DNA of 64,000 nt from Schmidtea nova (Eukaryota), in assembly GCA_044892505.1 (NCBI GenBank), contig CM097883.1:106206001-106270000 (forward strand). Reading direction: 5' to 3'. Each line of letters opens with the position of its first letter. Within the stretch, counting starts at the first letter, position 1. This document shows positions 4,675-32,634 of the stretch, in pieces. The notes below the pieces were generated by a model. The model made no database searches and was not told the origin of the DNA. It saw nothing but the letters and a program-made list of their open reading frames with translations. The translations under genes and the position numbers were made by a program.

Positions 4675-5672
4675 CAATAGAGTTTTTCAAAAATAAAAGA
4701 TTTCTATTTTTAAATATTTGGTTATTTTTAAAGTTTTTTATTGTTTGTTTGTTTTATATAGGAACCTGTGTAAATATTAAATGTTTTTATATAGGGACTA
4801 GTATCATTTTTCAATTCATAATCGTTTGGTATTATNNNNNNNNNNNNNNNNNNNNNNNNNNNNNNNNNNNNNNNNNNNNNNNNNNNNNNNNNNNNNNNNN
4901 NNNNNNNNNNNNNNNNNNNNNNNNNNNNNNNNNNNNNNNNNNNNNNNNNNNNNNNNNNNNNNNNNNNNNNNNNNNNNNNNNNNNNNNNNNNNNNNNNNNN
5001 NNNNNNNNNNNNNNNNNNNNNNNNNNNNNNNNNNNNNNNNNNNNNNNNNNNNNNNNNNNNNNNNNNNNNNNNNNNNNNNNNNNNNNNNNNNNNNNNNNNN
5101 NNNNNNNNNNNNNNNNNNNNNNNNNNNNNNNNNNNNNNNNNNNNNNNNNNNNNNNNNNNNNNNNNNNNNNNNNNNNNNNNNNNNNNNNNNNNNNNNNNNN
5201 NNNNNNNNNNNNNNNNNNNNNNNNNNNNNNNNNNNNNNNNNNNNNNNNNNNNNNNNNNNNNNNNNNNNNNNNNNNNNNNNNNNNNNNNNNNNNNNNNNNN
5301 NNTAGATTGACAACGGAGATCCTTATGATTTTATACGTTAGGGTGATCTCGCCAACATAAAAACATTCCCCCGCTGACACCCATGATGCATCCCTAACTA
5401 CTCCTCATGTTGGTACTGTGTCAACGTTGTGAAATGACAAGGCAGGTGAGCAACCTTACGGCTACTATTCCCTTGTTTATTCACGGGTCCACCACTACCG
5501 ATAGAAGGTGTTTGTGGATTTCTTTCGGTCCCACTTATGCTCTTGTCTATTGTCCTAGGGTAATTTAATCTTAGCGCATCTGCTGTTCTTCATGAATCCG
5601 GGTTTTAGTTATATTCAATTCTCAGACATTCCACAAACAAACAAGACAAGTCAACTCATTCATTTTATACAT

Positions 5673-6254
5673 TTATTTATAGTTTAACAATACAGAGGGC
5701 CTAATTACATTTAGTAGTTCTTGCTCGGAGAGACCACTGAGCAAGTCTACCTCTATTCCTACGCGATCTGCATATGCGCGTCTCTCCCTGCGTTTTTTCG
5801 CTCCCAAGCGATTCCTTCGTTTGGTCCTCTGCGATCCTCGTGGTATAGTTGTGGTCATCTCGGTTGCCGTGGTTACGGTTATCTCTTTGTCGGTTTGCGT
5901 ACTCGTCGTCGCTGATGTCGAAGTTAACCATTTGTTGAAGGTACTCGTCCTAATCACTGGACGCAATTGCTCAACGATGAAATCTTGGGTCGACACCTTT
6001 TAATAATTGGCCAACTCTAACTTCAGGGCTGCGACCTCCCTTGCTTGTTCATCGATCGTTCGCTCCGCTCTGTATCGGGCCTGTAAGATGGCTTTAACCC
6101 TCTCAGGATTAAACCACGTTGCCTTAATCCGCTGGTGCTCCTCGTTCAGTTGTCTCAAGCGACTCTCGAGGACACGAGATCGTGCTCTATGTTCGCGTGC
6201 CTCTTGCTTGTAATTTCGAGTGGGATTTTCGTCCATATCTGAGTAATGTATCAT
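5673..6254 (-). pseudogene. LTR-encoded 193-aa coiled-coil/Arg-rich ORF, broken in this LTR by a TTA>TAA nonsense change at 6001
   Basis: The 84-aa and 107-aa ORFs here join into the intact 193-aa ORF at 31876-32457. Base 6001 is T here versus A at 32204. Confidence 0.9.
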
Positions 6255-6431
6255 TAACCAGGGTATTTATGCCTTGTTTGGTTTCTCAGTCCCTATTTTA
6301 TTGTTAAACAACTGCACCCTCATCCTTACTCATTCCACATACATCCAAAACCAAAACAAAACCCTTTTAAATGGATACATATATTTTTGATTTACAACAG
6401 ATGTTCGTACATTGGGGTGTCGTCCTCGTGA

Positions 6432-7067
6432 TCAATTGTATGGTCGTAACTCTTGATCGGCCGGGTTCTCGTCTCGGCGAATCCCTGTTTCATGGTATAG
6501 TTCGGGGGCCGGATTCCAACTCAGTTTGTTTTGATAAATGAACACCTCCCAGAGGCGAAGGTCTTTGGGCTCGGGGTGTTGATCCACGGAAATACTGCCT
6601 GGGGCGTTCGGGTAAACGAAGACTTCCCCAGTGTCACCACACCGAGGCCTGTCTAGCAGCAAATACCCGAGTTGACCGAATGCCTGCCCGGTCATCATTC
6701 CGGTGCTTAGTACCCAGCGGGGTTGTTGGGTTTCATCTACAAATTGATAGAACCATCTTTCGCATCCATCTTTGGTGGGGTTCGGAGAGGGCGTCCAATC
6801 GACATCGCCTTCCCACCTCAGCTGTAGTTGGAATGCACAGGCGGGAATACTTGCCGCTATGCTCATATGGGTCCTCGTCCATCGACGCAGGTGTCTACGT
6901 GCGGAGTTGAAAATTTGTCGTGGGGCCTCCTTCTCTCCTTGGATCTCAGTAGGTAATTTTTGTGTGATGACGGAGCGGATGCGCCGTTTCCTCCGTAGAA
7001 TGTACTCCTCTAATTTGACGGTTAGGGGTCCTACCGGCTCCTTCATGAGATATTCTGTTTTCCTCAT
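6432..7067 (-). CDS. LTR-encoded 211-aa protein of unknown function (3' LTR copy)
   Basis: ATG-started ORF, same protein as 32635-33270. Basic patch RRKRR; TTTCAG acceptor 6 nt before the ATG. Confidence 0.6.
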   Translation of the reverse strand: MRKTEYLMKEPVGPLTVKLEEYILRRKRRIRSVITQKLPTEIQGEKEAPRQIFNSARRHLRRWTRTHMSIAASIPACAFQLQLRWEGDVDWTPSPNPTKDGCERWFYQFVDETQQPRWVLSTGMMTGQAFGQLGYLLLDRPRCGDTGEVFVYPNAPGSISVDQHPEPKDLRLWEVFIYQNKLSWNPAPELYHETGIRRDENPADQELRPYN

Positions 7068-8732
7068 GTTGCTCTGAAACGGAATTTTAGGTTAACTGAC
7101 AGACTCTATCATCGACCATCGATTTTATGTCGATCAACCTACTTGGTTTATCGTCTATTAGCCGTAGGCCTTAGTAGCTCGCATATAATTTACTAGACCG
7201 TTGGTCGCGATGTTCATGTAGGTTGTGACTTTACCTAGGTGAGTTGATTCACTCCGCAATTTCAGACGGTTTTAGCTACGCTAATTTTGGCTTCTTATTT
7301 ACAATCAATTTATGTTACATTTAATTTTTCACCGATCATTTCCATTCACTCAACATAGTTCATTTACAGATCATCATCAGCAACTATCAAGGTTCTCGTC
7401 ACGGGGAAAATTTAGTCATCCCTTAGTCAACTGCTTTGTTGAGGGACCCACTAATTTTATCTACTATCGGGTCTGACTTTTCATGCCCTTAGTGGATTAT
7501 ATGTATATATCTGGCAGCTCATTCGATTCACGACTACCCCTTGGTGTTAATGTCTTTCGGCCGCGATGTTACGTTTTGCCTATCTCGATGCTCATCGACT
7601 TTTGATGTACCAGCACTCCTTGAAGGTATACCCCCTCATCAAGGTACTTCATGCATATATCTTCCCTTGCGAAATGAACTTTACCTTGAGTTGATTTATG
7701 GTCATTAACTGTCACCCGATACCCCGTCATCGTACTGTATAGCATTTATACTAGGCTATCGCTACCTTGATTTAGTTCATGATCATTAGGTCTTACTCGA
7801 TACCCTATGTGCATCCCCCTTTTCCCCTCATCAAGTATTTAGTAAACTTATGGTCCCGCCGCATCAGCACCTCACCACCGATAAGGTGTGTTGCGCTGAG
7901 AGGCCAAAGAATCCGTCAGGCTGCTAGGCCTCCGGAAAACCTTATTGATTTTATCATGATTATGATTATTATGAGGGTTTAAATAATTAACAATAAAACT
8001 CAACCATACTTGTATTTGGCTTCCAATCGATTTTACAATGTCTTCCGTAAGAGTGACTGTTGTACTGATTTACCTTCAGTAAAAATGACCTCCTATTTCT
8101 CTATTTTTACTGATTTTACTTCAGTATTTATACTCAACCGGTGTTGTTGGTCAGCCAATCAGCATCGAGTATGTGTGTATGTTTGCTTCATTATTTTGTG
8201 TTGCCGGCTTTTTGGTGCCTAACTCAACTCAATGATTTATTTGGTTAATCATGCGGTAAGTTTATTTTTGTATGATTTAATTTTTATTTGATTTTGTTTT
8301 AGCTCTTCGGTGACATCCGCCCACGCGCTGTCATATTCCGATTTTATTTGCTTCGCATGAGTGAGTTATGAAGATTTTTGTTGTTTTTATTAATACTCTA
8401 TTTCTTTTAGATGTTGCCGCCTATTTTATTACACTTTGGTGTTGGTAATTTATTTTGTTGTTATTCTGTTGTAAATTTATTTTATTGATTGTATATTATT
8501 TTTAGATGCTGCTCGATTTGGCTGGCCCAACATCACTCGGGGTCCCCTAAAATTGCGTCCCGCAATTACATGCATATACCTACATCAACATACATAAAAA
8601 GTTCGTGACAGAACTTACATGCCAAACCACATAAGGTGGTAGCTTTTATACACATTTTTACACATACACATTGTCATTGTCATGTTTATATTGTTACACA
8701 GTTCAATGTTTCTGGCTCATAGGGGTCGATTT

Positions 8733-9257
8733 TCAGGTCCTTTCACTGGATGACTGCATTTCGTATCGGGCTTGGATTTGTCGCAGATGACTTCTCATTC
8801 TTTGTTGGGTTTTGGCTTCTCTTTTGGCGCATCTACACATTATCGTTTGTTGTTGTTTGAGGCTTCTGATTCGGTACAGGGTATACGTGATCACTATGAT
8901 CAAGATGATTGTCAATATGGTCATTGTGACTATTCCCACGATGATCCATCTGTTTCGGATTTCGTATTCGATTTGGGTTTGACCTTTGATTGGCTTTAGG
9001 TGATCTTGAAATGTTCTATGGATTTCTCTGATCTTCTCGATTTGATTGAGTAGGGTTTGTAAGGGTTTGCGATGATCATGACTGATTCGCATTTGTCGGA
9101 TTAATTGTTTCAAGTCTTCTCTGACTTCGTTTAGTTGTTTTTCGATCTCCTGGGATATCTCATTTGACAGGGTTCTTTGGATTTCGGTTGTCGTACAGTT
9201 CGTGATTGCTGCTGTTAACATAATAGTTAGGATTGGTAGGGTTTTGAGCCAGTTCAT
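8733..9257 (-). CDS. Accessory 174-aa type I membrane protein (signal peptide, coiled-coil ectodomain, TM, basic tail)
   Basis: Hydrophobic N-terminus MNWLKTLPILTIMLTAAIT, heptad region, TM WIIVGIVTMTILTIILIIVITYTLY, then R/K-rich tail with CRC. Confidence 0.75.
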   Translation of the reverse strand: MNWLKTLPILTIMLTAAITNCTTTEIQRTLSNEISQEIEKQLNEVREDLKQLIRQMRISHDHRKPLQTLLNQIEKIREIHRTFQDHLKPIKGQTQIEYEIRNRWIIVGIVTMTILTIILIIVITYTLYRIRSLKQQQTIMCRCAKREAKTQQRMRSHLRQIQARYEMQSSSERT

Positions 9258-9330
9258 TTCTGATTATTCCACTGATTAATACAGGTTACATCGATTTGTA
9301 CATTTTTACACACGGATTTTTTGCCTCTTT

Positions 9331-10503
9331 TTACACATCCGTCTCCTCTGGTTCATGGAACCCTTCATCTTGGAGTTCCATTGGTGGTGGTGGTATAAAC
9401 GGTAACCACACCACTCTACTTCTCCACATTGCAATTTCGTCTTGATACGTTCGAGAGATTTGTATCTCTTCATCTAACAGATACTCCATATAGTCTGATT
9501 GTTCGCTCAGAGTTTCAATTTGTCTTTCCATTTCTTCCACTTTTCTCTTCAGGGCTTCTGTTTCTGTTGGTTCGGTTTCTATTTCTGGGGTTTCTTTCTC
9601 TGCTTTCAGGGTTATTATTTGTTGTTTCAGCTCCTCGTTTTCTTTCGTCAAATTCGTTATGTTTTCCTCGTAAGCTCGGTTTGATTCCGCATGTCTTTCT
9701 TTCACTGCTTTCAACTCCATTTTCTTTTGGGTCACTACTCCTTGATAGCCATTTACATCTCTTTCCAGGCTTTCTTTTTCCCTGATCAACTTTTGTCTTT
9801 CTGCTTCCTCTTTCTGTCTAATGCCTCGCATTTCTCCGTTTATTATCTGTATTTGCCATTGCGTTTTCTTTAGTTCCTTTGCTTGTTCTCGAATAAATCG
9901 CTGTCGTTTTCGACTCCATTCTTTGTTGGTCTGTTCTTGTCGCTTTCTCTGTTCCAATTCCTCTTTCAATTCGTCTATCTCTTGATACAATTTCCAATCT
10001 TCGCTGTGTGCTGTCCTTCTGATTATCTCTTTGGCTTCTTTATACACTCGTTTCGACTCCATCTTCCAATGTCTCGCTTGAGCCTTGATTGCTAGTATTT
10101 TTACCTCCATCTTTTCCTCTTGTTTCTCCCTCTCTTCTCTTCGCGTTTTCATCATATTTTTATAATGTTCTGCTTGTTTCCTCATCAACTGATAGGTCTC
10201 TTCTATCTTCTGTCGACTTCGTGAATTCGTTCCTTTTAGCTTCTCTATTTGTGTTGTCAGTTGTACTATCTCTTTATTTACTTCCTCGAGTTCTAGTTGA
10301 TATAACTCCATTCGTCTTTTGCATTTTAGTTTCTCGTAGAAATTGTTTGTCATCACTTCGTGTAATTCTCTGGTTCTTTGTTCTACTTCCACTTTACATC
10401 TCTTTTCGATTTCTCTTTCGATTTCTCTTTCTATTGCTTCTTGTTCGTTTGACATCTCGTTTCTCGTTTCATCTTCGATTACATGTTCATTTGCGTTTTC
10501 CAT
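9331..10503 (-). CDS. Accessory 390-aa long coiled-coil protein, unknown function
   Basis: E/K/R/Q-rich heptads almost throughout. C-terminus WLPFIPPPP...ETDV. Confidence 0.75.
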   Translation of the reverse strand: MENANEHVIEDETRNEMSNEQEAIEREIEREIEKRCKVEVEQRTRELHEVMTNNFYEKLKCKRRMELYQLELEEVNKEIVQLTTQIEKLKGTNSRSRQKIEETYQLMRKQAEHYKNMMKTRREEREKQEEKMEVKILAIKAQARHWKMESKRVYKEAKEIIRRTAHSEDWKLYQEIDELKEELEQRKRQEQTNKEWSRKRQRFIREQAKELKKTQWQIQIINGEMRGIRQKEEAERQKLIREKESLERDVNGYQGVVTQKKMELKAVKERHAESNRAYEENITNLTKENEELKQQIITLKAEKETPEIETEPTETEALKRKVEEMERQIETLSEQSDYMEYLLDEEIQISRTYQDEIAMWRSRVVWLPFIPPPPMELQDEGFHEPEETDV

Positions 10504-10592
10504 TCTGTAATTTACAAATTTACCCTTGTTATATTATACGTTTATTGTTGTCGTTGATTTTTACACTTTATTTACAGGGTCGTTCACTCTGA

Positions 10593-12005
10593 CTACTCCA
10601 ACCATCCTTTCGTCGACTTCGTGTTCATCGCTGCTGTACTTGTTTTCTTTTCGATTTCCAACTCTACGTATAGGTTGTCGTCGTACAACATTTCCCACAT
10701 TTTTTGGTGTGGTATGAATTTTGGTTCTCCTGTTGCTAGTGAACATTCTGTGGTTGGTCTTTTGTAAGCTTCATGCTTACCATCAATTTTGAATATCCTC
10801 ACGATCGTTTCTTTCGAGTTTTTGACCCTCATTACCGCCTTTGTCTCTAGCGGCCATTCTAATATGTCGTCGTAACCCCCTTTACACAACGCAAAGAATA
10901 ATGACACATGCGTTTCCTTTCCTGATCCATCTTCATTTGGATAAATTCTCATCCGGACTTTGTATCCGTTTTTCCACAGATAGAATGGTGGACTTGTTAC
11001 TGACACTTGACTTCCTGCTTTTGCTGCTGCGAACCTTTCGTTGAAGTTCTTGATTTTCCATACATATGGTGCAACAGGTAAACTCTCAATATCCTCTGCA
11101 TCTCGTATCCACATTTGATGTCGCACGTTTACTTCTTTTACCAATGTCTCTATGACTTTGATTTTCTCCATCATTTTCTCTCTGGTGAGCTCGAATTGCT
11201 CTCTCGTTTCCAGTAATAACTCCGTCATTATCCTCTGAGATTCAATTTCTTTCCTCAGTTTCTGTATGGTTTGTTCCATTCCGTTCAAATTTTCTGTTAA
11301 CATCTCTGCGTGTTGTACCGTCTCTGTTTCTAAATGCTCTTTCATTTCTTTGCTCGTTTTCTTTACTACACATCCTTGTTTGCTCCATACGCACTTTCTT
11401 GGCCTTGCTTCGCACTGCTCCCAATGTTCTTTCAACATCACCTCTTCTCTGGCTCCACAATTACTTGGACAAATTCCTCTGAATTTTCCGCACACTTTCT
11501 CTTCTGCTACGTTGAGATGCTCTGTTACAATTACTTCTCTCGTCTCTCTTTGTTCGCAGTATTGACACTCTATTATCTCTGCCTTGCACTCATCCTTGTG
11601 ATTTTTCGACTGCTTGATGGTTATCGTCTGTTGACACTTTTCACATATCGCTTTCTTGTTTTCGCATTTCTCCAGATGTTGTCTTAGCTCGATTATTTGT
11701 CCTTTCCATTCACATGGTTGGTTTATACATTCTGTTTTTATCTTCCAGATCTCCTTTTGTATTGCTTTGTCTGGTTTCGTCTCGTTGATTAGTAGTTTAT
11801 CGCCACACTCGGGACACTTTCTTGTCTCACTTTCACTGATTATTTGCAATATACACTTGGTGCACATCCTGCATCCACATTCCGTTTGCCTCGGTTTTAA
11901 CAGTAGATTTTTACACTTTACACACGTCACATTTACTCCCCATTGTCGATTCTCTCTTCTTAGAATCTCGATCGTTTGGTAATCTGCTTCGCTTTCTGCT
12001 CTCAT
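10593..12005 (-). CDS. Full-length intronless TRAF-family protein (RING, TRAF zinc fingers, coiled coil, MATH/TRAF-C), 470 aa
   Basis: RING CVKC..KPRQTECGCRMCTKC..CPEC; TRAF fingers C..PCEWKG..L..HLEKC, CPSNCG..EHWEQC, CVWSKQGC..EHL; MATH YVWKI.NF, SPPFY...GYKVRMRIYPN.DG.GK.THVSLFF..CKG.YDDILEWP, G.PKFI, DDNLYV. Confidence 0.92.
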   Translation of the reverse strand: MRAESEADYQTIEILRRENRQWGVNVTCVKCKNLLLKPRQTECGCRMCTKCILQIISESETRKCPECGDKLLINETKPDKAIQKEIWKIKTECINQPCEWKGQIIELRQHLEKCENKKAICEKCQQTITIKQSKNHKDECKAEIIECQYCEQRETREVIVTEHLNVAEEKVCGKFRGICPSNCGAREEVMLKEHWEQCEARPRKCVWSKQGCVVKKTSKEMKEHLETETVQHAEMLTENLNGMEQTIQKLRKEIESQRIMTELLLETREQFELTREKMMEKIKVIETLVKEVNVRHQMWIRDAEDIESLPVAPYVWKIKNFNERFAAAKAGSQVSVTSPPFYLWKNGYKVRMRIYPNEDGSGKETHVSLFFALCKGGYDDILEWPLETKAVMRVKNSKETIVRIFKIDGKHEAYKRPTTECSLATGEPKFIPHQKMWEMLYDDNLYVELEIEKKTSTAAMNTKSTKGWLE

Positions 12006-12095
12006 TCTACAACAATATTTACATCAATTTCCCCATATTTTTGATTTTTTCTGGTTCTTTATTTACACGTATTTACACAATTTTCCGCTTATTCA

Positions 12096-12446
12096 CTATA
12101 CATCCTCAGTTGAATCTGGCTCTGGATACACGTCTATCTCATTTACAATCCAGCTCGTCCAACTATCCGGTATCTCTTCCTCTTCATGTCTCGTTAATCG
12201 GTCAATTTCCTCTGCTTGCCAATTGTTCACTTCATTCAATGTTCGGTTCTCGTTCTGTAATTCGTTTATCTGTATTTGTTGGATCTCGATTTTGTTCATT
12301 GCTTCGAAATTACAGTTATAACTTTCGGTTAATAATTGCGTTTTGGCCGTCAACTGGCTCTGTAATTCGTTTATTGTTCTGGCTAGCAGGTCACATTGCA
12401 CTTTCCATCTTGTCATCATCGACATCTCTGTGGTTTCTTGATTCAT
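12096..12446 (-). CDS. Accessory 116-aa coiled-coil protein with acidic, Trp-containing tail
   Basis: ATG ORF with repeated INELQ heptads, placed co-directionally between other accessory genes. TAG acceptor 7 nt before the ATG. Confidence 0.65.
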   Translation of the reverse strand: MNQETTEMSMMTRWKVQCDLLARTINELQSQLTAKTQLLTESYNCNFEAMNKIEIQQIQINELQNENRTLNEVNNWQAEEIDRLTRHEEEEIPDSWTSWIVNEIDVYPEPDSTEDV

Positions 12447-12569
12447 CGTTTTTCTAGATTATATACATCATTCTCTTTTTTCTGTTTTTATGTTTTATAA
12501 TATTTATACCCATACGTATACGGTTATGCATTGGTTTTTACACTACTATTTACACTCATATTCCACCCT

Positions 12570-13832
12570 CTATACAATCACTACTGGTTTTTCTTCGTAC
12601 AGTTCCTCGTCCTCGATCTGTACCCACATCTCTTCATGTTTTGATCGTCTTTTCAGCTCTTCTCGTACTGCTTTTGGTAGTTTTATGTTGTAATTCGTGA
12701 CCTTAACTTCTGGCCATTTTACTGCTATGGTCTTATTTCTCATGCCATATCTCCAACATACTATCATGATCGTTATCAGCGGTATACACGCTATGAATAC
12801 TCCCATGCTGATTAATCCCATTATTGTTTTCCCGATGCTCATTTTCGGAGCTTCACTTTGGTTTATCATCACGCCATATTGACCTTTCCATTCCGCTTCC
12901 CATTGTTCATATTGTTGTTGTCTCTGTCTGACTTCTTCGATCACTTTCTCTGGTTCCCATTTTTCTTGTTGATTTGGTATTGTTTCTTCCTTCTCGTTTT
13001 GTTCTCTCTTCTGACTCAATTCTCGGAATTCTAACTTTCTGATTCTCCTCGTTATCGTCGTGTTCCTTGGCGTGTAATAGGTTTCGCACCTTTCTTGTTG
13101 ATTTCCTTGTGTATCCACTTCTTCAATTGCACACACTTCGTATTCTGCGTTTGTTTTCAACTTCCTCATTTCTACCTCGATTATTTCTCCTTTGTCATCT
13201 GCGGTCTTTTGACAACTTCGTGGAGACTTTCTCATACTGTTTGGCATTAATGTCCAACAGATTTCTAGGACCTTTTTATGGATCTTCCATATTATCAACG
13301 TTATTGATTCCGGTTCGTTTTCTATTGTCGTCCCTTCTGTTGTTACCTGTTGAACTCCTTGACTGTTGGTTGTCGTGGTTTTTCTTGACTTTCTTTTCCT
13401 CTGTCGACTTCCTTCCATTTCGATCGTTCTTGTTCCGTTAATTTGCTCTGGCGTCTTGTACAGTTTGCACTCCCGGCTTCTTTGTATTATTTCCTTTATT
13501 CTTCGGATTACGCAAATTTCATATGCTTGTCCGACTTCGAATCCATTTAGTTGAAACGGGATTCCCCGTTCTCTCGTTCTGCATTGCGGTATTACGTTGT
13601 TGGTCGATATTCCGATGTATTTTCTCCAACACATCCCAATTGTTCTCCGACCAATGTTTTTTATCTCCACTGTTACTACTTCATTCGCAATCGTTTCTTG
13701 ATCTTGTTTCTTTCTTTTTGGGAACTCAATTATCTCCTTTGCTTGGAACACTTTACACTCGCTTGTTCCTGGTCTGTTTCCGTTTGCTGCTTTTTCCATG
13801 AGGCATAGTTCACATGTTTTCTCTGTTTCCAT
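12570..13832 (-). CDS. FN3-like repeat membrane protein (420 aa as annotated); in frame with the polyprotein beyond one TGA
   Basis: Repeats with pattern (I/C)W...L...YE(I/V)C...C..Y.T, TM IMGLISMGVFIACIPLITIMIVCW, cytoplasmic tail ..LYEEKPVVIV. No stop between 13937 and 13833 in the polyprotein frame. Confidence 0.72.
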   Translation of the reverse strand: METEKTCELCLMEKAANGNRPGTSECKVFQAKEIIEFPKRKKQDQETIANEVVTVEIKNIGRRTIGMCWRKYIGISTNNVIPQCRTRERGIPFQLNGFEVGQAYEICVIRRIKEIIQRSRECKLYKTPEQINGTRTIEMEGSRQRKRKSRKTTTTNSQGVQQVTTEGTTIENEPESITLIIWKIHKKVLEICWTLMPNSMRKSPRSCQKTADDKGEIIEVEMRKLKTNAEYEVCAIEEVDTQGNQQERCETYYTPRNTTITRRIRKLEFRELSQKREQNEKEETIPNQQEKWEPEKVIEEVRQRQQQYEQWEAEWKGQYGVMINQSEAPKMSIGKTIMGLISMGVFIACIPLITIMIVCWRYGMRNKTIAVKWPEVKVTNYNIKLPKAVREELKRRSKHEEMWVQIEDEELYEEKPVVIV

Positions 13833-13937
13833 TTCAGTTATCTCGATTTCCTCATTTGTCTCTGCCTCTTGACTTTCTCTTGTTTCGCTGATTCCAATTA
13901 CCTCATTGTTTCGTCCCCAACATCTTCCATTCGTTGT

Positions 13938-16900
13938 TCATTGGTCTTGGATGTTTACTAACGTCATCACGCTGATATCTATGTCCTCCATGATTCTCTT
14001 AATGAGAATTAATATTAATGCTACACATATCAATTCTGGTTGGAATGTTAATTTGCCCGCTGAATTTTTGGTTATTCTTTCTTTCTCCGTTCGGTTTCCG
14101 ATTCCTTCTTCTGCTTCAGATTGATTCTTCCCTTTCTCCGATTCCACTTCTGTTCTTCTCGTTGTCTCTTCGCTTCTTTTCCCAATCCATTTCTGTATCT
14201 TCAGCGCTTCTGTTGCTTTATATAATTGACATGCAGTTACTTGAGGTGCTTTTGGTTCTCCTCTCTGCTTTATTGCGCATATTATGTATGACTTTTCTTT
14301 CTCCAATCCTTTGATTTGGATGACGTCTCGCTTCAGATCTGACAATATACACTTCAGCGTGTCGTTTTTCTTCAGGTTTTCTTTCCAGCATATTCTTTCG
14401 TATACTTCGTTTCCTCTGATTATTTCCAGCGTGACGTATTGTTTCTTGGCTTCTCCTTGTCCGATGATTGTTATCAATATCGCAATACACAACATTTCTG
14501 GTCTCAAAAGTAGACTTCCTGTTCGTTTTCCATAATTCGTACGTTCGTCTTTCGTTCCTCTGTTTTCTCGTTCTTCTGCTTCTCCTTTCTTGTCGTTTCT
14601 TGTTGGCTTTGGTTCTTCCTGTCTTTCTTTTTCATTATCCTCTGTTCTTTTGTTGTCATTGTCTTCGTTGTTCTTTTCGTTGTTACTTTTGTCGTCGAAA
14701 TCTCTGTAACCACCCCCTGGTCCTTTGAAAATGTCGTCCTCGACATTAATTTCTTTAATCAATCTTTCATACGCTTGAACCGCGAGTGTGCTAGACTCGA
14801 ATTCCCGTATTTCCATATCTTTGGATGGTTCTATGTCTTTTAGTCTACTTTGCTTTATCGTTTCTTTGGCATCTGTCCATTCATTCACATATTTTCTGAA
14901 CAAGTCTTTCCATCTTCCCGTTCGTTCGGGTTCCTTTGGATTGTTCGTGAATTTCAAATCTCTTCTCTTCAGGAATTCTTCAACTATCTCTGGCTTTTTG
15001 TGTCTTAATAACGCGCTTCTGATACACCAATTCTGATTCTGTTCCATATGGTCATTGATCTTGAATGCCGGTTCCTTGGTGATCGGATTCACCCATGTTA
15101 GTAATGCTCTTGTCTTCTCTATGTCGTGTATCATTACTGTTAGACTGAAGTTCTTTACGTTATTTGCCAGGTATTCGATATCCTCTTGTTTATTGATGGA
15201 CTTTATGAACTTGATCATCTCGAAGTTGTTCCACTGTATTGCGATATCTATGATGGAATTGTTCTTTCCATTTTTCCCTTCGATTTTGGCTCCTGCTTCG
15301 TATAACTCGTGTAGCACTTTCAATTTCGTCTTCTTTCTTGCTGCGATTATCATGATTGTGTCTCCGTTATCATCAACCATATTCATATCTGCTTCGCACT
15401 TTACCATTGCTTTTGTTATTTCTAGCGCTTCGTTTTCTTTCTTTCGACGTAATGCCCAGTGTATCGGCAATCTCCCATCCTTTGATAATAGGAATGTTAC
15501 TGGCATTTGATTTTTGATCGTTTCTATGTCACTCTCGTTATAATCTCCTTGTGCGTATCTGTGCACTTTCTCTGTAATTGCTCCTAGTATCTCCAACGAG
15601 TTTTTATTCTCCTTGAATTCTGATAGTCTTTCCTGCGCTTTTGCTACGATTGCGTCTAGTCTCTCTTGATTATCAGCTTTTGCATTGAACAACACTGCTT
15701 TGCTTCTTATTCGCGTTTGCATCTGTTTCATTCGTTGGTCTTGATACACTGCTTGTCTGAAGAACTGTCCATATTTCAATGCTTCTATCAGCTCTTTATA
15801 TCGCTTGCTTATTTCTTTGTGCTGCTTTTGGATGTCATAAAAATGTTCGAAGCTCATATCCGGATTCCATTGCTTATCACACCATTTCTTGATTAATCCG
15901 AATAGTTCTTTCTTCCTGTCTTCCAACTTGTATTCTCTTGGGTTTTCGCTAACCCGTAACGTATCTCTCGCTATTAACACTGCAAGTGTTTTTGGATCGT
16001 ATGTTACCTCTAGTAGATGTTTCAGTAACGCATTTTCTCCCCTTATGAACACTTCATTACAATCTATGACCCACGAATCTCCTTCTGGTCGTTTCCACTT
16101 TAGCAATATTCTCCAGGTTTTACTGTTTCTTACTCCGATTGCTTGTTTCATGATCGATCCTCTAGTTAGTTCATCGATTTCCCACGTGGCATTTTCCGTA
16201 ATATACTTTAGTATTCGGTGATTTGCTCTGTCAATTGCATGATTCAAGAATGTTCGTCCTTCTTTATCCTTTGCCATCCAATTCGATCTGGTGTTTCCGA
16301 ATAACTTGATTATTTCATCGTTTCTTCCATGAATTGCTATCATCATTAGTGGAGTGATTCCTTCCCAATTCACTTTGTCAATTTCTCCTCCACCTTCGAG
16401 TATCATCTCTACGATCTCTTTCACCTTCTCGTTTCCCCCGTGCTTGATTGCATTGTGCAACGCGGTATTACCGTCTTTGTCTTGTAGATTCAATGTTTGA
16501 GGGATTTCCTCTAGCAGCGTTCTTGTTATTGGATGTGCTGTTCTATCCTTCGCATACTCCATTACATTTTTTCGAACTTCTGACAGTATATTGAAATCGT
16601 GCCACCATTTCCATTCTGGTATAATTTCTCTGGTTTTCTTTGCCAGTTCTTTGATATCTATTATCTCCCTTCGGTTGTCTTCTAGACTTGTTTGCGGCTT
16701 TTGTTGTACTCGCAACATATTGATTCTCGCCGTCTGTGATCTTGTCATCACCCGTTTCTCTGGTGATAGAGTTGCTGTCTTTGGTATTTTCCTGCATCGA
16801 CATGCATTCACGTATATTGGTCTTACCAATGGATTGTTCACCAATCGTACTCGCACATTATTTTCATTTACTGTTGTGATTTCGTATGGCCCTTTGCCTG

Positions 16901-19900
16901 GTCGTTGGAGTTTCTTGACCGTACCGGGTATTATCTCTGGTGTCTCGACTATCACCCAATCTCCAACTTTTAAATCATGTGCTTTCACATTCTTTTTCTG
17001 ATCATGCAGATCTTTGTAACTCTCTTGATAGAACTTGATGTTTAGTTCCGCCGTTTTCCAGATTTCTTGCATTCTTTCTTTGAACTTTGTAACGTAATCG
17101 TCAACCTCCATGTACTGTGATAATGGTGGTTGGTATTCCAAATCGATCGGTAAGTTGCAATCTCTTCCGTACATTAGTTGGAATGGACTTAGCTTTGTTG
17201 CCGCATGTATTGACATTCTGTATGCCATTAAACACAAGTTGATATATTCGTCCCAGTCGGTTTGATGTTTACTGACGTAATTCGACAACATGCGTATCAA
17301 TGTTCCATTGAACCTTTCTGTTTGACCGTTCGTTTGTGGATGGTATGGGGATGTTCGTAATTTCGCAATTCGGAAGTAATTCGTGACTTCGTCTAATATT
17401 TCACTCATGAAGTTGGTTCCTTGGTCCGTTAGGATTTTCTTGGGTGTTCCGTATCTGCAGCATATCTCTTCTACCAATATTCTCGCGACTGTTTTTGCTT
17501 TTTGATCTGGTATTGCGAATGCTTCTGGGAACTTTGTTAGATAGTCCGTAACTACTAAGATATACTGATTCCCCTTTAAACTTTCTGGCAATGGTCCAAC
17601 TACGTCCATTGCTATCGTTGCCATCGGTTCTGCGGGTATTGGCATTGGTTTTAGTGGTGTTTTCCACTTCGTTCCGACGTTCTTTCTTGTCGCACAGGTT
17701 AAGCAGTTCTTTATCCATTCTTTCACATCATCTTCCATGGTTGGCCAAAAATACTTTTGTCTCAATCTCCCGATTGTCTTTTTCGCTGACATATGTCCGC
17801 CTAATTTTCCGTCATGATATTGAGTCATGATTTCCTTTCGCCTATTCGCAGGTAAGCACATTAATCTTCGTTCTCCATCTTGTATCAATAACCATCCTTT
17901 TTCCATCACATATCGGTGCTGATATTTCTGCATATGTTCGCGTAACGCTTGGTCCTTGCCGAATATTTCTATTTCCCTTTCTTTCAAATACTTGCTGATC
18001 AATCCCAACTCCTCATCTTCGATCTGCTCTTTCCTTAGTTCGCTGAAATCCAGATCTTCCGCTATTAATGCACATATTTTTAGAGTATTCAGGTTCACCA
18101 ATTCTGGGAATGTAAACCTTGACATGCAATCCGCGTTTGCATTTGCTTTTCCTGCTTTAAACTTTATGAATGGCGAGTATTCCTGCAACTGCATCGCCCA
18201 ACGCATCAATCTACTTGATGATTCTTTATGTTGACCTAACCATACTAATGGTTGATGATCCGTTGTGATATATATTTCATGACCCCACAATAGGTATTTG
18301 AAATGCTTGATTGCCAATATTATCGCATAGGCTTCTCTTTCCGTGACTGAGTAATTCCTTTCATGCTTCCTGAACGTTCGACTGTAATATCCAATTACTC
18401 TTTCCTTGCCTTCTTCGTCAAATTGGCCTAGTACTGCTCCTGCTGCATATCCACTTGCATCTGTTGCCAACAGAAATGGCTTCTTAAAATCTGGATGGAC
18501 CAGTATTGGTGCTGTAATCAGCTTATCTCGTAATGTTTCAAATGCTGCTTGCTGTTCTGCTCCCCATACAAACGACACATCTTGTCTTACCAATTCTTGC
18601 ATTGGTTTTGATATTCCTGCATAGTCTTTGATAAACTTTCGATAATATCCACACAATCCCAAAAATTCTTGTATTTGAGTCACTGTCTTTGGTGGTGGAC
18701 ATTCTTTGACCTTTTCGATATTCCTTGGATCTGGTTCTTTTCCTTTTGCTGATACGATGTGACCTAAGAATGTCACTTTCTCTTTTGCCCAATCGCACTT
18801 TGACGGCTTCAGTTTCAGTTTCCACTGTCTCAATTTCACGAACACATTTCTGATGTCTTGTAAGTGATCTTCAAATGTTGCGGAGTAGATCAATAGATCG
18901 TCGATATACACCATGCATTGTTTTATGCCATGTGTTACGAAATTCATGCATCTCTGGAATGATGCTGGCGCGTTTGTTAACCCAAACGGCATTTTCTTGA
19001 ATTGGTACAGATCTCGTCCGATTGTAAATGCTGTCTTCTCTTTATCCTCGTCTTTCATTTTGATCTGCCAATATCCGCTTTTTAAATCCAGTGACGTGAA
19101 ATAAGCTGCTCCTTGTAACGTCAATAACATTTCATTTATGTCTGGCAGTGGGTACGTATCTCTTTTCGTAACTGCGTTCAATCGTCTGTAATCGATACAG
19201 AATCTCTGAGTTCCATCCTTCTTTTTCACCATCACCACTGGGAATTGCCAGGGTGAGCAACTAGGTTCGATGACCTCTGCATCTAACATCTTTTGTACCT
19301 CTTCTTCTGCCACTGCTTTTTGAGCTTCTGCCAGTTTATATGGTCTTAATGCTATTGGCGTTTCGTCCGTCAACGGTATCGTGTGTAAGGTTACGTCACA
19401 TGTTCCTAAATCCAGATCTGATGCTGCGAATATATCTTTATATTCCATCAACAGTTTCTGTAACTGTTCTTTTTGTCGTTCGTCTAACAACACACTGTCG
19501 ATTTTCCATGGTAATTCGTCTTTGCTTTTCTCGTTCTTGTCTGGTATTTCGATTTCGGACATGGGTGTCAATTTACCCAATCTCTCATTCTCGTATATTA
19601 TCTTGTCCTCTTCGTCGAAGTTTACCAGATTAATCGGTATTTCTCCTTCTTGGTTTATCGTGACCAATTCTCTTGCCATTGGTAATTCTTTCTTTGCTTC
19701 GAACTTCTTACTGGGTTCGAATATCATGTCTCCTTTTATTGTTGAATCGATCTTGACATAACACATCATTTCATGTCTCGCTGGCACTACTATTTGTTCC
19801 GCACTTGCTACTTTAACTTTCATTCTGCAGATTTTTCCTGTTCTGTCTTTTAGCTTCATTGCTCCTAGATCAATTACGATTTCCTTGAACAGGTCTGGCA

Positions 19901-22900
19901 TCAGGTCAGTTCCAATAATACATGGTACACTCAGCGATGGTATTACAGCGATGTACGTGTTGATTTCTGCCCCTCGATGCTTAATTTTTACAAACCATCT
20001 TCCGGCTACTTCTACTGTCTCTTGACTGCACGCGATTACATGTACATTCGTCTTCTCAATTTCTCCTTGGTTTTTCTCTGGTATATAGTTGATGTCGATC
20101 GCCGAAATATTCGCGCCTGTATCGATCATAGCTTCGATTTCTCTCCCGTTTATTTCTACGGTTGTTGTTAAGATCGGTCCCATATTTGTGGACATAACTG
20201 CTATCGTGTGCGTGTCTTCCAACGGGTCTACACTTCTGCATCGTTTTACTTTGCATCCTTCTGGAATTATCGGGTATATGCTTGTCATCGGCATCATCTG
20301 CATCATATTCGGCTTCGCTTTGTATATCGGTTCGTTATACATTGACTGAGGTGGAGCGCTGTATCTCCAATTCTCAACTGCACTCTTTTCGGTATACTGT
20401 GGGATCTGGTTTATATTCGCTTGTCCTCCTTGATCGTCATCGTCATCATCATTGCTTGAGTCGTCTTGTGTTCGATATCCCTTCACTCTTTCCCATAATC
20501 CTTTCCTTTCTTTCTTTAATTGTCGCCTTGCTTGCTCGTCTTGCATTATCTTTTTGAATTTCCTTCCGACATCTTCGTTTGTTCCTTTCATTTTTGCAAG
20601 TATCTTCAATAACCTCTTTATTCGATGTATGTCTTTTGAGTGTCCGTGCAACACCATCGTTTTCGCAAGGAATGGTAAAAACCCTACTACCATTTTCCAA
20701 TTCACTTTCTTTTCTCTCTTGTAGATATCGAAGCACGCTAACATTTGCGTTATTATTACTCTGACGATTTGTATTATCAATATAACACCCAGTATTCCAG
20801 CCATCATTTGTCCAAATATCAGGAATCTTCCCCACATTGCCTTCATCATGTTTTCTGTGGCTTTCTTGAAATGTGCCGGTGACAACAACAATTCGTAATT
20901 CGGTCCTTCTCTGTAATTCGTTCCTCCCGTTATCGTTACGATGTTTGACAGTAATGCTTCTCTTCTTGCCGGGAATAATATATTCTGCCTTGCTGCTTCT
21001 AAGTCCTTTGGACTATAGATTCCGTTGTTTGAGACATCTACGTCGCTGAACTGTCTATCCTTTGACAACTGCATTAGTTCGAATTCTCTTGGTGCTAATA
21101 CTTCGGTTCTTCCTGGGAACATAACCCATTTGCCATCTGGCTTCTGATAAAGCGGTCCGTACGCGTTACTACAGTTGAATGGATTTGGTTCAAATCCTGG
21201 TGGATTGATGATTCTCGTCACCGGTTGAACATATCGTACTTTTCCTTTATAATCGATTTCTAATTCATTTGTACATTGTCCAGGTTTCAACTGCGTTGTT
21301 GCTGCTAGCGATGCGTGTGTCTTTTCGCAAATATATACATACATTGCCTCTCCAACCACTCTTCCGAAATGTCCTTCTCTCAGTGGTAATAATGGCATCG
21401 CGCTATCTGGATTCGTAATCGCTACGGCCAACTTTGTCTTCAATATTTCCCGATTCAGTATACAATCGTTATTTATCAGATCATAGTACACTTTTTGCAA
21501 TGAGGCTTGTCCTCTATGGAATAAGAAATCCATTTTATTATTCACATACAAGTGTAGCTTGATATCCATTGTGTCGATCTTGGGTTTCGCATTCGGCACT
21601 TCTTGTTTCGACACGTATATTCCTGGATAATTTGTTTCGTATACTGTTGTACTGCACTTAAGGGTTGCTTTCCCTTTTATGAATCTCATTCCCACATCCT
21701 GATTTGTGGTTATCAACACTGTTGGTGTGGCTCTCATCTCTATTCGTTTTTCTCTATGATCTGGTCTCAATTGTCTTTTGTTCTCTAAAGCTTCTTTGAG
21801 ATGTTTTGCTCTAGCTTTGTCATCATCGTCCTCTTCCTGGAACGTTTTTCCTTGGATTTCGTCGAACTTTGCTCCTTGTAGCAGTTGTAATTGACATTCG
21901 TTCACTTTCGGTTTGTATACCAATGTTGACATTCCCGTTTGACACATACTCCTGTCGATTTTACACATGGATAACGTTTTCATTTCTCCGGTTGTCGGTT
22001 CGAAGAATGCTTCGTAGCTTTTCAGTTCGACTATGTACGTATCCATCACCACTAGGTTGGTTGCAGGTGCTCCGAATATTGGGTAGGTTTCTCCTTGACA
22101 GTACCCTTCTCCTCCCGTAATTCGTCCTGCTACATAATACGTCTGCTGTAACATCATTCCTGGTTTTCCTTTTATCTTGATTTTATCTCTCGTTGTTACT
22201 TCTCCATGTTTAAATAATGCTTCGCAGTCTTCCCCTTGCAACACGATTGGTTCTCTTTCTGTTCCTGGCATGACAATTGCTGAATAATGTCCTCTCCCAC
22301 AATAGAATGCGAATCTCGTCTTCTGTACCTTGCATTCATTCACCATTGTCTTTATTAGTTCTGCCTCTTGATACACGTGATACCATTGTTCTTTTTTAAT
22401 CTCTTTCAATTCTACTGGAGTTGCGTCTTTGCATTGCTCCGTACCTCTCAATGAGTACTTTTCTCCCAATTTCATTTGATCACAATCAAATACTTCGAAC
22501 GTTGTTACACCTTCTGTGCTTAACAACCATACTAGCATCATCATGATTATCGAGTTTAGATTCAACGTCGATCTTCCGTTTCCTTGCATCGTTTGTCTAT
22601 TCTCCATTTCTCTCAATACTCCCTCGAGTTTCTTTCTCATCACGTTAGAACCTTCTTTTGTCTGATTCTCTTTTATGAACTTTTCCCATCCTCCTTTTCT
22701 GAGGATATATGGTTCAATTTCTTTCTCGATAATCATCGCCGTATTCTTGATATGTCTTCCCATCGGACTTGACTTCGGACTTCCTCGGCTTAGCGTTAGC
22801 AAATTGTATATCGTATACGAGATTGCTACTAGATATTTGCTGTCCGTTTCTGCTCCGTTCAGTAACCTTTTTATCAACATCGTGGTTCCTTGCCAATCTA

Positions 22901-25900
22901 GATGATTCGATTTTGTTTTTGCCTTTATCAATTCCGGCATAATCGGTGCTATTGCATTGTGTAGCATTTTTGCCTTTGTACTGGGTTCGTTTATCCGCCA
23001 CAAATTCTTTAATTCTGGGTCAATTATCGCTAACACATCCATTATCGTTTTGGTGAGCCATTCTTCTCCTTGACAAACTTGATTCTCCTCTTTTCCTCTG
23101 ATTTCTGCGATTTTGTCTAGTTTCTTCAAGCAAATCTCCCATTGCTCTTGTCTCCTTTCTTCTCTTGTCTTTGGAATTGTTGTTGCTGGATCTATCTTTG
23201 GTCTCCCTCTTGGTCGTTTTTCCATTCCAGTTCCGGTTTCTACAAATCTCGCTGCTCTTCCGGTTTCTTCTGTAACATCTCTTCCTTCGTTCGCTCGCTG
23301 TTCTAACCATCTTTCCATTTCTTGAGTAAACTGTGGTTGTTCTTGTTCGTCTTCCGAATCGTTTACCATTTCTATGACTACCTCCTGTTCCACTCCTTGA
23401 TCGTCGATTTCTGCTGGTGACGTTATTGGCATCTCTATTATTCTGTCGAAGATATTTGCCGTTGGTTTTTGAGTTAACTTCGTTAGTTCTTCTATCGCCT
23501 CATCACTATCTGTTAGTATCTCATCGACGTCATACGCTTCTGGCGGTGTTCTCTCTCTCGTTTTTATTGGTGTTGTCCTTGCTTGTCCTGAACTTGTTCC
23601 TGGGGTCATTGTTGACTTCATCGGACTTGGTGTACTCATGCTTCCTTTCGCTTTCTTTTCCTCTTTAAACTTCAGTGGTTGACCCACTATTTGTGCCACT
23701 GTTAGCGTATTCATTAGATCCAATTGCACTGGTGTCAGCCAGATTTCCAAATTATTATCCAACGATCGTCCTTGATGTTGCAGGTGGAATGGTAGTTCAT
23801 ACATCAGTTTCTCTTTAACACTCTTCACTTTTTCGGTTAGCATCACCCAAAATTCTTCTTTTCTCTGATTCGGATACATTATCCTCAAATGTATTTTCTG
23901 TGGCGTTTCCTCCGCGAATTCTCGGTTTCTCCACTTTTTTATTACATCGTCTAGTTGCTCTGGACACCACTCGTTAACTCTCTTGTATTCTGCTATCGCT
24001 TTAGCTACTTTTCTCAAGTTCGTTATGTCTTCTCCATTTGAGATTATGAATTGTGCTAAGCCTTTTATTGTTTGTCTTTTTCCCCGAGTGTTTCCTCTCA
24101 ACAGCTCGATCAATTCACTTGTTTTCTGTTTCTCCAATTCTGCCCATATTACTGCAGTTTCTGGTCCGTCTAAGTCCGTTGGTAGTAACCTCCTTGTTAC
24201 CATACATATCCGTTTCGTATTCAGTTCATATCTGTCTTCTCCTTCCGGATCTTCTTCATATACGCCTCTTTTCACTTTCCAACATTTCTCTTTGTTATCC
24301 CATTGCTTCTCTACTGGCGTCAATCGTCGTCTGTTAAGATCCAATTCTCCTAATATTGTCTCCCATTCTGGCTTCATCTGCCAGTTCCGATAGATTTCTA
24401 CTATCTGCCTCAGCTTACGCATAACGTCCTCTTGTCGTTTCTTTTTCCTTTCCTCATCTCTTGGTGTTGCTCTTGGCACGTCATCCATTCTGATGACATG
24501 TATTGTCTGATAATTATCCCATATGCCGATTTTGTACGCTCGTCTCTCATCACGTTCGTTCAGTAGATGTTCTTTGTATTTTATCGCTATGTCATCCTCA
24601 AATTCGTCTTCCCGTTCTCGTTGCAATATCGTCTCATTGATGACCTCTACTATTTCTCCCACTTTACTATCTGGTATTACTTCAATTTGTCTTGTCTCTT
24701 CGTTCGGTAATCTCACAGTAATCATTAGATCTGATACCTCTCCTCTTTTAAACATTTCTTTTCCCATCTTTGCAATTAGCTTGTCGGTTTTGAAATTTGA
24801 ATGTCTCGTTTGACTTGTATCTCGTATGTTTTCGATACACTGTTTCAAATTCTCATACTCGCTTTTCGTCAATTCCTTTCGATGTTTCTTGATTTGTTGA
24901 ATGATCTGTTCTATCATCGTATTCAAATTCTCTGCCAAGATTCTTTCCTTTGCCTTCATCCACTGAGGTTTTATTCTCATCTCATAACACGTATTTGCTT
25001 CTCTGACGATTCCTTGTAGGTTCTCTTTCTTTTTGGTGTTGCATATAGCTAGCGTTGTTATTTCTCCTGGCCATATGCCTGTGTCTATCATATGCGTTCC
25101 TTTTCTCACCAATCCGTTTTCCGAATATATGAATTTGTCTTTGTACGAGCTTCCCAATCTGTCCTCAACCCATCTGTAAATTCCATCTGTCATTGGGTTC
25201 CTTATCCAGATTCTTGGTGAACACTCGTTTATCCATATTTGTATTACGTATTCGTTCAGTGGTTCTTTCAATAACTTCTCTATGAATTCTTGTATTACCC
25301 TCACTTCTCTTTCTTGTAACCACTCTTTATACTTCATCTGCCATACTGCTCGTATAAACTTTCTATATCGTTTCCCGTCGATAAACTCCTCGTTATGGAT
25401 TACTTCCAACGCGTTATCCATCAGCTTCTGAATTTCCTCTTCCTTTACTGACATCGTTTCTATCGTCTCGACTACTTCCATCTTTTTATCCTCGTTTTCC
25501 GGTTCCTTTAGCATGTCTCCTGCCAGACTGCTGACTTCGCTGTCGTCTTCTTCATCCGACAACTCTTGTCTTGGGTGTCTCAGCATCCCAATATGCGCGG
25601 TTGGTCTCGCTTCGTTTTTGGTAACTTCTTGTATTAGTTCATTCTCGGTTCCCGTTATTTCAGCTTTTCCCATTCTCTTTTCCAACTCGTCTATTTCTTC
25701 CAGCCGTCTTCGTCTTATTTTTCCTTTAAATATTCGACTGATCCGAGTTTGATGTTTCACTGGTGGGGGAATTTTCTCCGGTTCCACCTCTCTAATGATC
25801 ATCACGTTTATTTTCGTCTCCGTTACTCCCATATCTTCCCATATATCCGTCGTCTTCAACTTTACTTCTGGCAAATCCTCTGTTTGTAGGAATGCTTCTC

Positions 25901-30478: not shown

Positions 30479-30937
30479 CTACAAGTACACTGTTATTTTC
30501 TCGGATACGGGAAGGTTGCACATAGGACATCGTTCATTTATTTTACATTCATTACAGAATCGGAAATGCCCACATGGCAACAACATTATCTGTATCTTAT
30601 TCATTTCACAGATATAACACATCAGATATTGTCTCGTATGTTCTGTTGTTATTCTTATCCACTCATCGTGTTTTGTTGTTAACTGTTGTTCTAGCCTGTG
30701 GCACTCGATGTTCATCTCAGGGTTGTTTAATCTTTCTCTATACCATTGATATCGTGTTGCTGTATCCACTGTGTTCTTATTCTCACTTAAGCTCATCATC
30801 CTTTCAGCTCTTTCTGTGTTGTTTGTCGGTTCGTGATATTCTCCTACCTCGAGTCTTTTTAACTTTCTCGTTATTGTCTCCACTGTCTCGTGGTTTGTTT
30901 CGAAAAACGTTTGCATTTCTTTTATTTTGTTCTCCAT
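30479..30937 (-). CDS. Accessory 152-aa coiled-coil protein with C-terminal IAP/XIAP-type RING finger (no BIR)
   Basis: CYICEMNKIQIMLLPCGHFRFCNEC..NERCPMCNLPVSEKITVYL-stop matches the terminal C3HC4 RING of IAP/MDM2-like ligases. Confidence 0.85.
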   Translation of the reverse strand: MENKIKEMQTFFETNHETVETITRKLKRLEVGEYHEPTNNTERAERMMSLSENKNTVDTATRYQWYRERLNNPEMNIECHRLEQQLTTKHDEWIRITTEHTRQYLMCYICEMNKIQIMLLPCGHFRFCNECKINERCPMCNLPVSEKITVYL

Positions 30938-31466: not shown

Positions 31467-31484
31467 ATCCCGGCTGAGCCCCCA
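31467..31484 (-). promoter_or_regulatory. Primer-binding site complementary to tRNA-Pro 3' end
   Basis: Minus strand TGGGGGCTCAGCCGGGAT versus the classical tRNA-Pro PBS TGGGGGCTCGTCCGGGAT (16/18); lies just inside the 5' LTR. Confidence 0.9.
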
Positions 31485-31875
31485 AATTTATGCTGGTGTG
31501 TTGGTTAGATTGACAACGGAGATCCTTATGATTTTATACGTTAGGGTGATCTCGCCAACATAAAAACATTCCCCCGCTGACACCCATGATGCATCCCTAA
31601 CTACTCCTCATGTTGGTACTGTGTCAACGTTGTGAAATGACAAGGCAGGTGAGCAACCTTACGGCTACTATTCCCTTGTTTATTCACGGGTCCACCACTA
31701 CCGATAGAAGGTGTTTGTGGATTTCTTTCGGTCCCACTTATGCTCTTGTCTATTGTCCTAGGGTAATTTAATCTTAGCGCATCTGCTGTTCTTCATGAAT
31801 CCGGGTTTTAGTTATATTCAATTCTCAGACATTCCACAAACAAACAAGACAAGTCAACTCATTCATTTTATACAT

Positions 31876-32457: not shown

Positions 32458-32634
32458 TAACCAGGGTATTTATGCCTTGTTTGGTTTCTCAGTCCCTATT
32501 TTATTGTTAAACAACTGCACCCTCATCCTTACTCATTCCACATACATCCAAAACCAAAACAAAACCCTTTTAAATGGATACATATATTTTTGATTTACAA
32601 CAGATGTTCGTACATTGGGGTGTCGTCCTCGTGA

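Follow-up and report, generated by a model that had tools for sequence, protein, structure and literature searches.

An in-frame TGA in the C-terminal membrane-protein module of a Burro-type Ty3/gypsy element of Schmidtea nova

The element and its interrupted polyprotein gene

We analysed a window of 64,000 nt from Schmidtea nova (assembly GCA_044892505.1, contig CM097883.1, positions 106,206,001-106,270,000 of the forward strand; coordinates below are those of the window), in which the minus strand carries a young 29.4-kb Ty3/gypsy long terminal repeat (LTR) element of Burro-type architecture whose polyprotein gene is interrupted by an in-frame TGA. The Ty3/gypsy (Metaviridae) hallmarks are present, namely two LTRs, a primer-binding site, gag and a pol region in the order protease, reverse transcriptase, RNase H and integrase (PR-RT-RH-IN). 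The element measures 29.4 kb plus a few clipped bases and has an internal region of 23.0 kb. Its LTRs are of equal length and differ at 7 of 3212 bp, all of them substitutions; N runs lie at both outer ends of the element (34718-35558 and 4836-5302), and the window has four gaps in all. The features on which the argument rests are as follows.

31506..34717, minus strand: 5' LTR, 3212 bp, 99.78% identical to the 3' LTR; outer end clipped by an N gap
31467..31484, minus strand: primer-binding-site-like sequence just inside the 5' LTR, which we take to be tRNA-Pro-like
13938..27476, minus strand: open reading frame 1 (ORF1), 4512 amino acids (aa); Gag with three CCHC knuckles, in-frame fusion glycoprotein, PR, RT, RNase H, IN, ankyrins and the start of the membrane-protein module
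20718..22553, minus strand: Env-like fusion glycoprotein, including a signal-like segment of its own (22553-22494) and a transmembrane segment (TM; 20807-20724)
17337..20165, minus strand: PR-RT-RH-IN core, intact (Pfam)
15201..16502, minus strand: ankyrin repeats (Pfam Ank_2, E 2e-19)
14445..14507, minus strand: SP1, internal signal-peptide-like segment before repeat 1; hydrophobic, with a 14-residue uncharged run followed by small residues
14202..14444, minus strand: FN3-like repeat 1 (repeat alignment)
13998..14045, minus strand: H2, a second hydrophobic leader that aligns with SP1 as its duplicate; short for a TM
13734..13976, minus strand: FN3-like repeat 2, split by the stop (repeat alignment)
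13938..13940, minus strand: in-frame TGA; falls within repeat 2, in the loop that joins predicted strands A and B (alignment and repeat-3 model)
13443..13685, minus strand: FN3-like repeat 3, the one modelled (AlphaFold2 pLDDT 68.9, five strands)
13071..13313, minus strand: FN3-like repeat 4 (repeat alignment)
12825..13070, minus strand: charged stalk (from the sequence)
12750..12824, minus strand: TM helix; 25-residue uncharged run, most favourable insertion score, basic residues on the C-terminal side
12570..12749, minus strand: 59-aa tail with an acidic Tyr motif, a hydrophobic C-terminus and a TAG stop (from the sequence)
5303..8514, minus strand: 3' LTR, 3212 bp; outer end clipped by an N gap

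Pfam families recognized in ORF1 were zf-CCHC, Monjiviricetes_fusion, RVP, RVT_1, RT_RNaseH, rve and Ank, with the fusion glycoprotein (PF24664, E 7e-71) placed in frame between zf-CCHC and RVP. At the pol positions that are invariant in 22 relatives, none of the 74 columns was broken in the window element, and this otherwise intact pol fits a young copy.

The TGA (13940-13938, minus-strand context CAA TGA ACA ACG) separates two stop-to-stop ORFs of the same frame, 27839-13938 (4633 aa) and 13937-12570 (455 aa), for which ATG starts at 27476 and 13832 yield products of 4512 aa (ORF1) and 420 aa (ORF2), respectively. The frame remains open for 455 codons past the TGA, up to the TAG at 12572-12570, a run with a probability of 3e-9 or lower at off-frame stop rates; at the other 6 ORF ends of the element the same frame closes after 0-14 codons. 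Codon usage in the 35 codons between the TGA and the first downstream ATG is ORF1-like (-3.65 per codon vs. -4.08 and -4.22 in the other frames), and an open run of 35 codons is by itself not rare (P 0.03-0.22). That first in-frame ATG (13832) falls in the second half of repeat 2, so a product initiated there would miss half of the repeat and any signal sequence, and a product ending at the TGA would be without a TM-length anchor. An earlier reading of the sequence alone (hereafter the sequence-only reading) had held that the 4512-aa ORF ends at the TGA while the frame runs on, which was borne out, and that the true coding unit comprises ~4970 aa, for which the layout of the relatives described below speaks; the product with X at the stop is 4968 aa long.

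The C-terminal module and its FN3-like repeats

The four repeats are anchored on a C-W motif, and five of the six repeat pairs aligned better than shuffled sequences (z 5.1-7.2; 0-1 of 2000 shuffles as good), the weak pair being repeats 2 and 4 (z 2.2; 70/2000). When the module that spans the stop was aligned with the module before it, the score reached z 10.4 (0/5000 shuffles), with separate matches on each side of the stop, and the similarity of the peptide across the stop to the preceding module that the sequence-only reading had pointed out was thus confirmed, as were the four repeats themselves and the coordinates given for them. Hydrophobic leaders precede both repeat 1 and repeat 2. SP1 would be the signal sequence, judging from its position and from the relatives, and H2, with an uncharged run of only 11 residues, has the least favourable insertion score among the five segments. 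The predicted TM (12824-12750) and the Tyr-containing tail are both present, as had been proposed, and the tail motifs presumably allow SH2- and PDZ-type readings. Hydrophobicity, flanking charge and the relatives together point to a type-I membrane protein, in agreement with the proposal of a cell-surface product.

The assignment of the repeats to the FN3 fold is moderately supported. None of the four repeats matched Pfam FN3, a PDB-sequence search returned no FN3 either, and a hidden Markov model (HMM) of 27 FN3 units (cut from P0072) found no match in the repeats. A profile-profile comparison of the repeats with FN3 gave a weak score of 18.2 (probability 7% over 61 columns; 0/200 column shuffles as high). 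We built an AlphaFold2 model of repeat 3 on the four-repeat alignment and compared it with 48,161 chains; the best match was an sDscam FN3 domain (Z 6.9, root-mean-square deviation 3.1, 76 of 86 residues), with no match reaching Z 8 and with strands C and C' of the model not resolved. Among the top 50 structural matches are 48 that we take, partly from general knowledge, to be FN3 domains or FN3-built receptors, together with 2 phage tail proteins. Foldseek again returned mostly FN3 (best E 0.1), a viral structure library gave weak FN3- and Ig-type rows only (best E 0.05), and a single-sequence fold of the four repeats together was uninformative (pLDDT 34). The FN3-like label thus has moderate support, from the predicted fold of repeat 3, and the Pfam, PDB-sequence and HMM searches do not detect it.

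The predicted architecture resembles that of Dscam, LAR/PTP-delta, DCC and cytokine receptors in its tandem FN3-type beta-sandwiches, stalk, single TM and short Tyr-bearing tail. It differs from these receptors in that the window repeats are shorter and Cys-rich, with 6-15% identity in the structural alignments, in that there is no LRR, Ig, kinase or phosphatase domain, and in that the protein is encoded in a retroelement polyprotein. The more specific suggestion of an LRR-FN3 receptor type did not hold up: the LRR ectodomain that precedes the FN3 domain in receptors of the FLRT, LRRN or LRFN type has no counterpart here, Pfam having found no LRR family in ORF1 or ORF2, and no LRR-FN3 receptor was among the top fold matches.

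Origin of the in-frame stop

A pol-core search among proteins of 2481-7896 aa yielded 71 matches, of which three (P0035, P0036 and P0037; 4057, 3865 and 2871 aa) carry the fusion glycoprotein, in each case within ORF1. In an RT tree of the window element and 23 of the 71 matches (most of the near-identical Cordylochernes gene models and one row failing the length filter were excluded), the window and these three relatives formed one clade with support of 99/98, at RT identities to the window of 54-57%. In all three, a single stop-free ORF ends in a signal-like segment, an ectodomain, a TM and a tail, and the window matches this layout only when both of its ORFs are joined. Because all three closest relatives share this ending within a stop-free ORF, one continuous frame is the ancestral layout, and the two ORFs are best read as one gene. 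The relatives have one signal segment where the window has two (SP1 and H2), and their shorter ectodomains contain no more than two units with an FN3-like L.P.T.Y motif; a test of these units against FN3 (12 columns, probability 12%) was discounted as circular, the units having been picked by the motif that aligned. Ankyrins precede PR in P0035, were not detected in P0036 and P0037, and follow IN in the window. In P0036 and P0037 a further aspartyl-protease-like domain separates IN from the C-terminal membrane module, which brings the total in P0036 to three.

Our preferred reading, to which we assign a probability of roughly 0.6, is that the TGA is a recent nonsense substitution in this copy of one continuous polyprotein gene, so that the stop would be specific to this copy. 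If the 7 LTR differences are taken as neutral changes since insertion, decay at the LTR rate predicts ~20 substitutions and 1.24 premature stops (95% range 0.5-2.6) over 7 ORFs and 18,810 nt, with a 0.71 chance of at least one premature stop; one was observed. The stop splits repeat 2 internally, between strands A and B. None of the readthrough signals listed in PMC2194720 was found at the TGA, which has no CARYYA 3' hexamer, no C at position +4 and no purine spacer with a pseudoknot; RNA structure 3' of the TGA was unexceptional (z -0.12; 84/200 shuffles as stable). Selenocysteine recoding was considered and rejected, as an Rfam scan of the element gave no match, and hence no SECIS above cut-off, and the stop is not aligned with a conserved Cys.

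The ends of the other genes of the element, listed here, bear on the same question.

30479..30937, minus strand: upstream accessory ORF, 152 aa, with a C-terminal RING finger (Pfam zf-C3HC4_3, E 2.5e-9)
12096..12446, minus strand: accessory ORF, ~116 aa, coiled-coil-like (Pfam scan)
10593..12005, minus strand: TRAF-like accessory gene with RING, zf-TRAF, coiled coil and MATH (Pfam MATH_2, E 3e-26; TRAF-mep_MATH, zf-TRAF, TRAF3_RING)
9331..10503, minus strand: accessory ORF, ~390 aa, coiled-coil-like; no significant Pfam family
8733..9257, minus strand: accessory ORF, ~174 aa, with a signal-like N-terminus and a TM; no significant Pfam family

The motif TGTAAA lies within 75 nt of five of the six other ORF ends (18, 21 and 19 nt for three of them). 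It occurs in all four AT-rich spacers (12447-12569, 12006-12095, 10504-10592 and 9258-9330, minus strand), where TGTAAA(T) is found one to three times each (9 occurrences in 375 nt), and all four downstream accessory genes have a YAG 1-7 nt before the ATG. No such YAG precedes ATG 13832, and the 105 nt 3' of the TGA are of coding-type composition and contain no TGTAAA. The absence of the boundary motif after the TGA is suggestive evidence against a real gene end there; it is not decisive because the upstream RING ORF also lacks the motif. As a separate observation, the spacer TGTAAA and YAG may serve as acceptors for splicing or trans-splicing, or may mark internal promoters, and TGTAAA resembles a forkhead site.

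That RING ORF is one of several points that weigh against a recent nonsense substitution. An exact look-up of the window proteins in the protein collection found 0 of 4, and no sister copies in which the stop could be compared were found in these searches; word searches for repeat-TM homologs gave none among 2169 candidates (proteins of 2732-8694 aa) or 7999 candidates (356-1136 aa), and phmmer of the repeat-TM region against 1.84 billion representatives gave none at E 0.001. The relatives are distant, as their RT identities show, and their ectodomains do not align significantly with the window repeats (probability 0.7%; 1/100 shuffles as good), the layout alone being common. The contig ends within ~20 nt of both element ends and may be a merged repeat; if it merges copies, the stop would represent the state of most of them, and the decay estimate would lose its basis. 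The relatives have no equivalent of the hydrophobic segment H2, which could anchor the short product, and N-glycosylation sequons number 3 vs. 0.8 expected before the stop and 3 vs. 2.9 after it. A CAA codon 5' of a stop favours leakiness. According to PMC2194720, moreover, readthrough signals may lie up to 750 nt away, and a stop may be bypassed without any local signal.

In one alternative, which we consider unlikely, the TGA is fixed in the family and leaky, and programmed readthrough yields mostly a short form that has one FN3 domain and is secreted or weakly anchored, the four-domain membrane form being rarer. Such an arrangement would recall SIRE1, a soybean Sirevirus in which, according to PMC2194720 and PMC2829016, one in-frame stop lies between pol and the ORF of a membrane protein; in the window element, pol is complete before the stop. 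Readthrough is also known from MuLV, TMV and Sindbis, alongside the stop-codon suppression at the SIRE1 pol/env-like junction. SIRE1, however, belongs to the copia superfamily, and the stop in the window has none of the listed readthrough contexts or a stable 3' structure, lies within a domain rather than between domains, and has no counterpart in this module in any of the three relatives, while drift by itself predicts one stop. In its boldest form this alternative would give this lineage of giant env-bearing gypsy elements a second surface glycoprotein, an FN3 adhesion protein or receptor mimic ending the polyprotein, with a fixed leaky UGA lacking any known signal in a duplicated signal-plus-FN3 module, so that a single frame would yield both a short decoy and a long membrane-bound attachment form; we regard this as similarly improbable. 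The sequence-only reading had left the choice between programmed readthrough and a fresh nonsense mutation; with no readthrough context and about one stop expected by decay, the balance leans to nonsense, readthrough being the less likely of the two.

A stop fixed in the family and not read through, with ORF2 either dying or expressed on its own through splicing, reinitiation or an internal promoter, in the manner of the accessory genes, seems slightly more doubtful still. Burro-type elements are reported to shift domains between the polyprotein and accessory ORFs (PMC6431247), and by eye a few core positions of repeat 2 differ from those of the other three. In a leave-one-out count, however, repeat 2 proved no more degenerate than repeat 1 (5 of 26 columns, vs. 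7 of 28 in repeat 1), and a separately made ORF2 would have no signal sequence, a first ATG in mid-repeat, and neither the spacer motif nor the YAG. As to splicing, the region is poor in T (13%), and the acceptors of candidate in-frame splice pairs are weak (3-8 pyrimidines per 20 nt vs. 7-9 before the accessory ATGs), which says little either way. Least probable of all, in our estimate, is that the TGA arose as an error of base calling or consensus in the gapped assembly of a repeat: the element does lie between two N gaps in a window with four, but the sequence looks accurate, with no frameshift in ~18.8 kb of coding sequence, intact invariant pol columns, and LTRs of the same length that differ by 7 substitutions.

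Under the preferred reading of a recent nonsense substitution, the replicating lineage would make a polyprotein that runs from Gag via the fusion glycoprotein, pol and the ankyrins into the last module. SP1 would send the four FN3-like domains and the stalk into the lumen of the endoplasmic reticulum, the TM would anchor the module with the short Tyr-bearing tail remaining cytosolic, and signal peptidase, if it cleaves as we suppose, would release the module as a type-I surface glycoprotein. In the genomic copy, the substitution would have put a TGA into repeat 2, such that pol would still be made in full and the surface protein would be shortened to one repeat without a good anchor. The most likely role of the module would be to partner the fusion protein in adhesion or attachment, or to mimic a host receptor together with the TRAF and RING genes.

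Comparison with known elements and significance

Other features of the element and its surroundings were recorded. The TRAF-like gene (10593-12005, minus strand) is complete and was captured as an accessory ORF, and the 174-aa ORF (8733-9257, minus strand) has a helical ectodomain between its signal-like N-terminus and TM and would be the element's third membrane protein. Tandem repeat arrays lie at 28345-29790, within the 4-kb leader that links the 5' LTR to ORF1. Within ORF1 a P/A-x-I-N/G-M motif recurs at domain borders (residues ~355, 405, 623 and 3579 from the first ATG), with a similar form in relatives, and may be a cleavage site for the element's protease. Beside the element, a pair of related ORFs (2-664 and 1687-4674, plus strand) encodes Polinton- or virus-like type-B DNA polymerases (DNA_pol_B_2, E 1.5e-32), a WD40 beta-propeller ORF (host gene exon) lies at 37824-38711 (plus strand), and a 379-aa ORF at 47372-48511 (plus strand) has by eye the look of a DNA-transposase fragment, with no significant Pfam match.

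The giant gypsy-like LTR elements of planarians known as Burro and GYPSM1 have ORF1 products of 4873 and 5140 aa, an internal region of up to 25 kb, a total length of over 30 kb and an env-like fusion glycoprotein in frame between gag and PR (PMC6431247). The window element comes close to them in size, with an internal region of ~23 kb and an ORF1 of 4512 aa (4968 with X) against the ~5000 aa described, and is like them in its three CCHC knuckles, env between gag and PR, the PR-RT-RH-IN order, ankyrins, MATH/TRAF and RING functions and accessory ORFs; the likeness rests on the published description, no named Burro1-4 or GYPSM1 sequence being among the 71 pol matches. It differs in its total length of ~29.4 kb and in carrying the TRAF gene as a downstream accessory ORF, where the described elements have it in the polyprotein or upstream. 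Burro-type elements are described with BCL2-like, BIR, SUMO-like and dUTPase-like motifs, several of which were found by HHpred, and the BCL2-like motif is reported to lie just before the env signal (PMC6431247). In the window none of the BCL2-like, BIR, SUMO-like or dUTPase-like motifs had a match in the Pfam or PDB-sequence search. A BH1/BH2-like stretch can be seen by eye at ~22600-22900 (minus strand), just before the env signal, and this candidate BCL2-like domain was not confirmed, having no Pfam or PDB match. An FN3 membrane protein in such polyproteins was not described in the literature searched, including section 7 of PMC6431247, which mentions no C-terminal FN3 membrane protein, and passages of PMC11410931; the extended data of Grohme et al. 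2018 may annotate the region.

The type of element is already known, and the stop probably reflects nothing more unusual than decay in a young copy. The lasting point is that a type-I FN3 membrane protein ends the polyprotein: each of the four elements examined in the clade closes its polyprotein with a signal-ectodomain-TM-tail module, in the window with four FN3-like domains. If the alternative of a fixed leaky stop were true, the element would contain a stop that is read through without any of the listed signals and toggles a surface protein between two forms. The spacer motifs, for their part, suggest a way in which one element expresses four downstream genes. The module itself is a candidate attachment or host-signalling protein for Burro-type elements, beside the fusion glycoprotein and the TRAF, RING and ankyrin genes, and with it the proposal that Burro-type elements are infectious proviruses interfering with host signalling (PMC6431247) becomes testable by localisation and binding assays.

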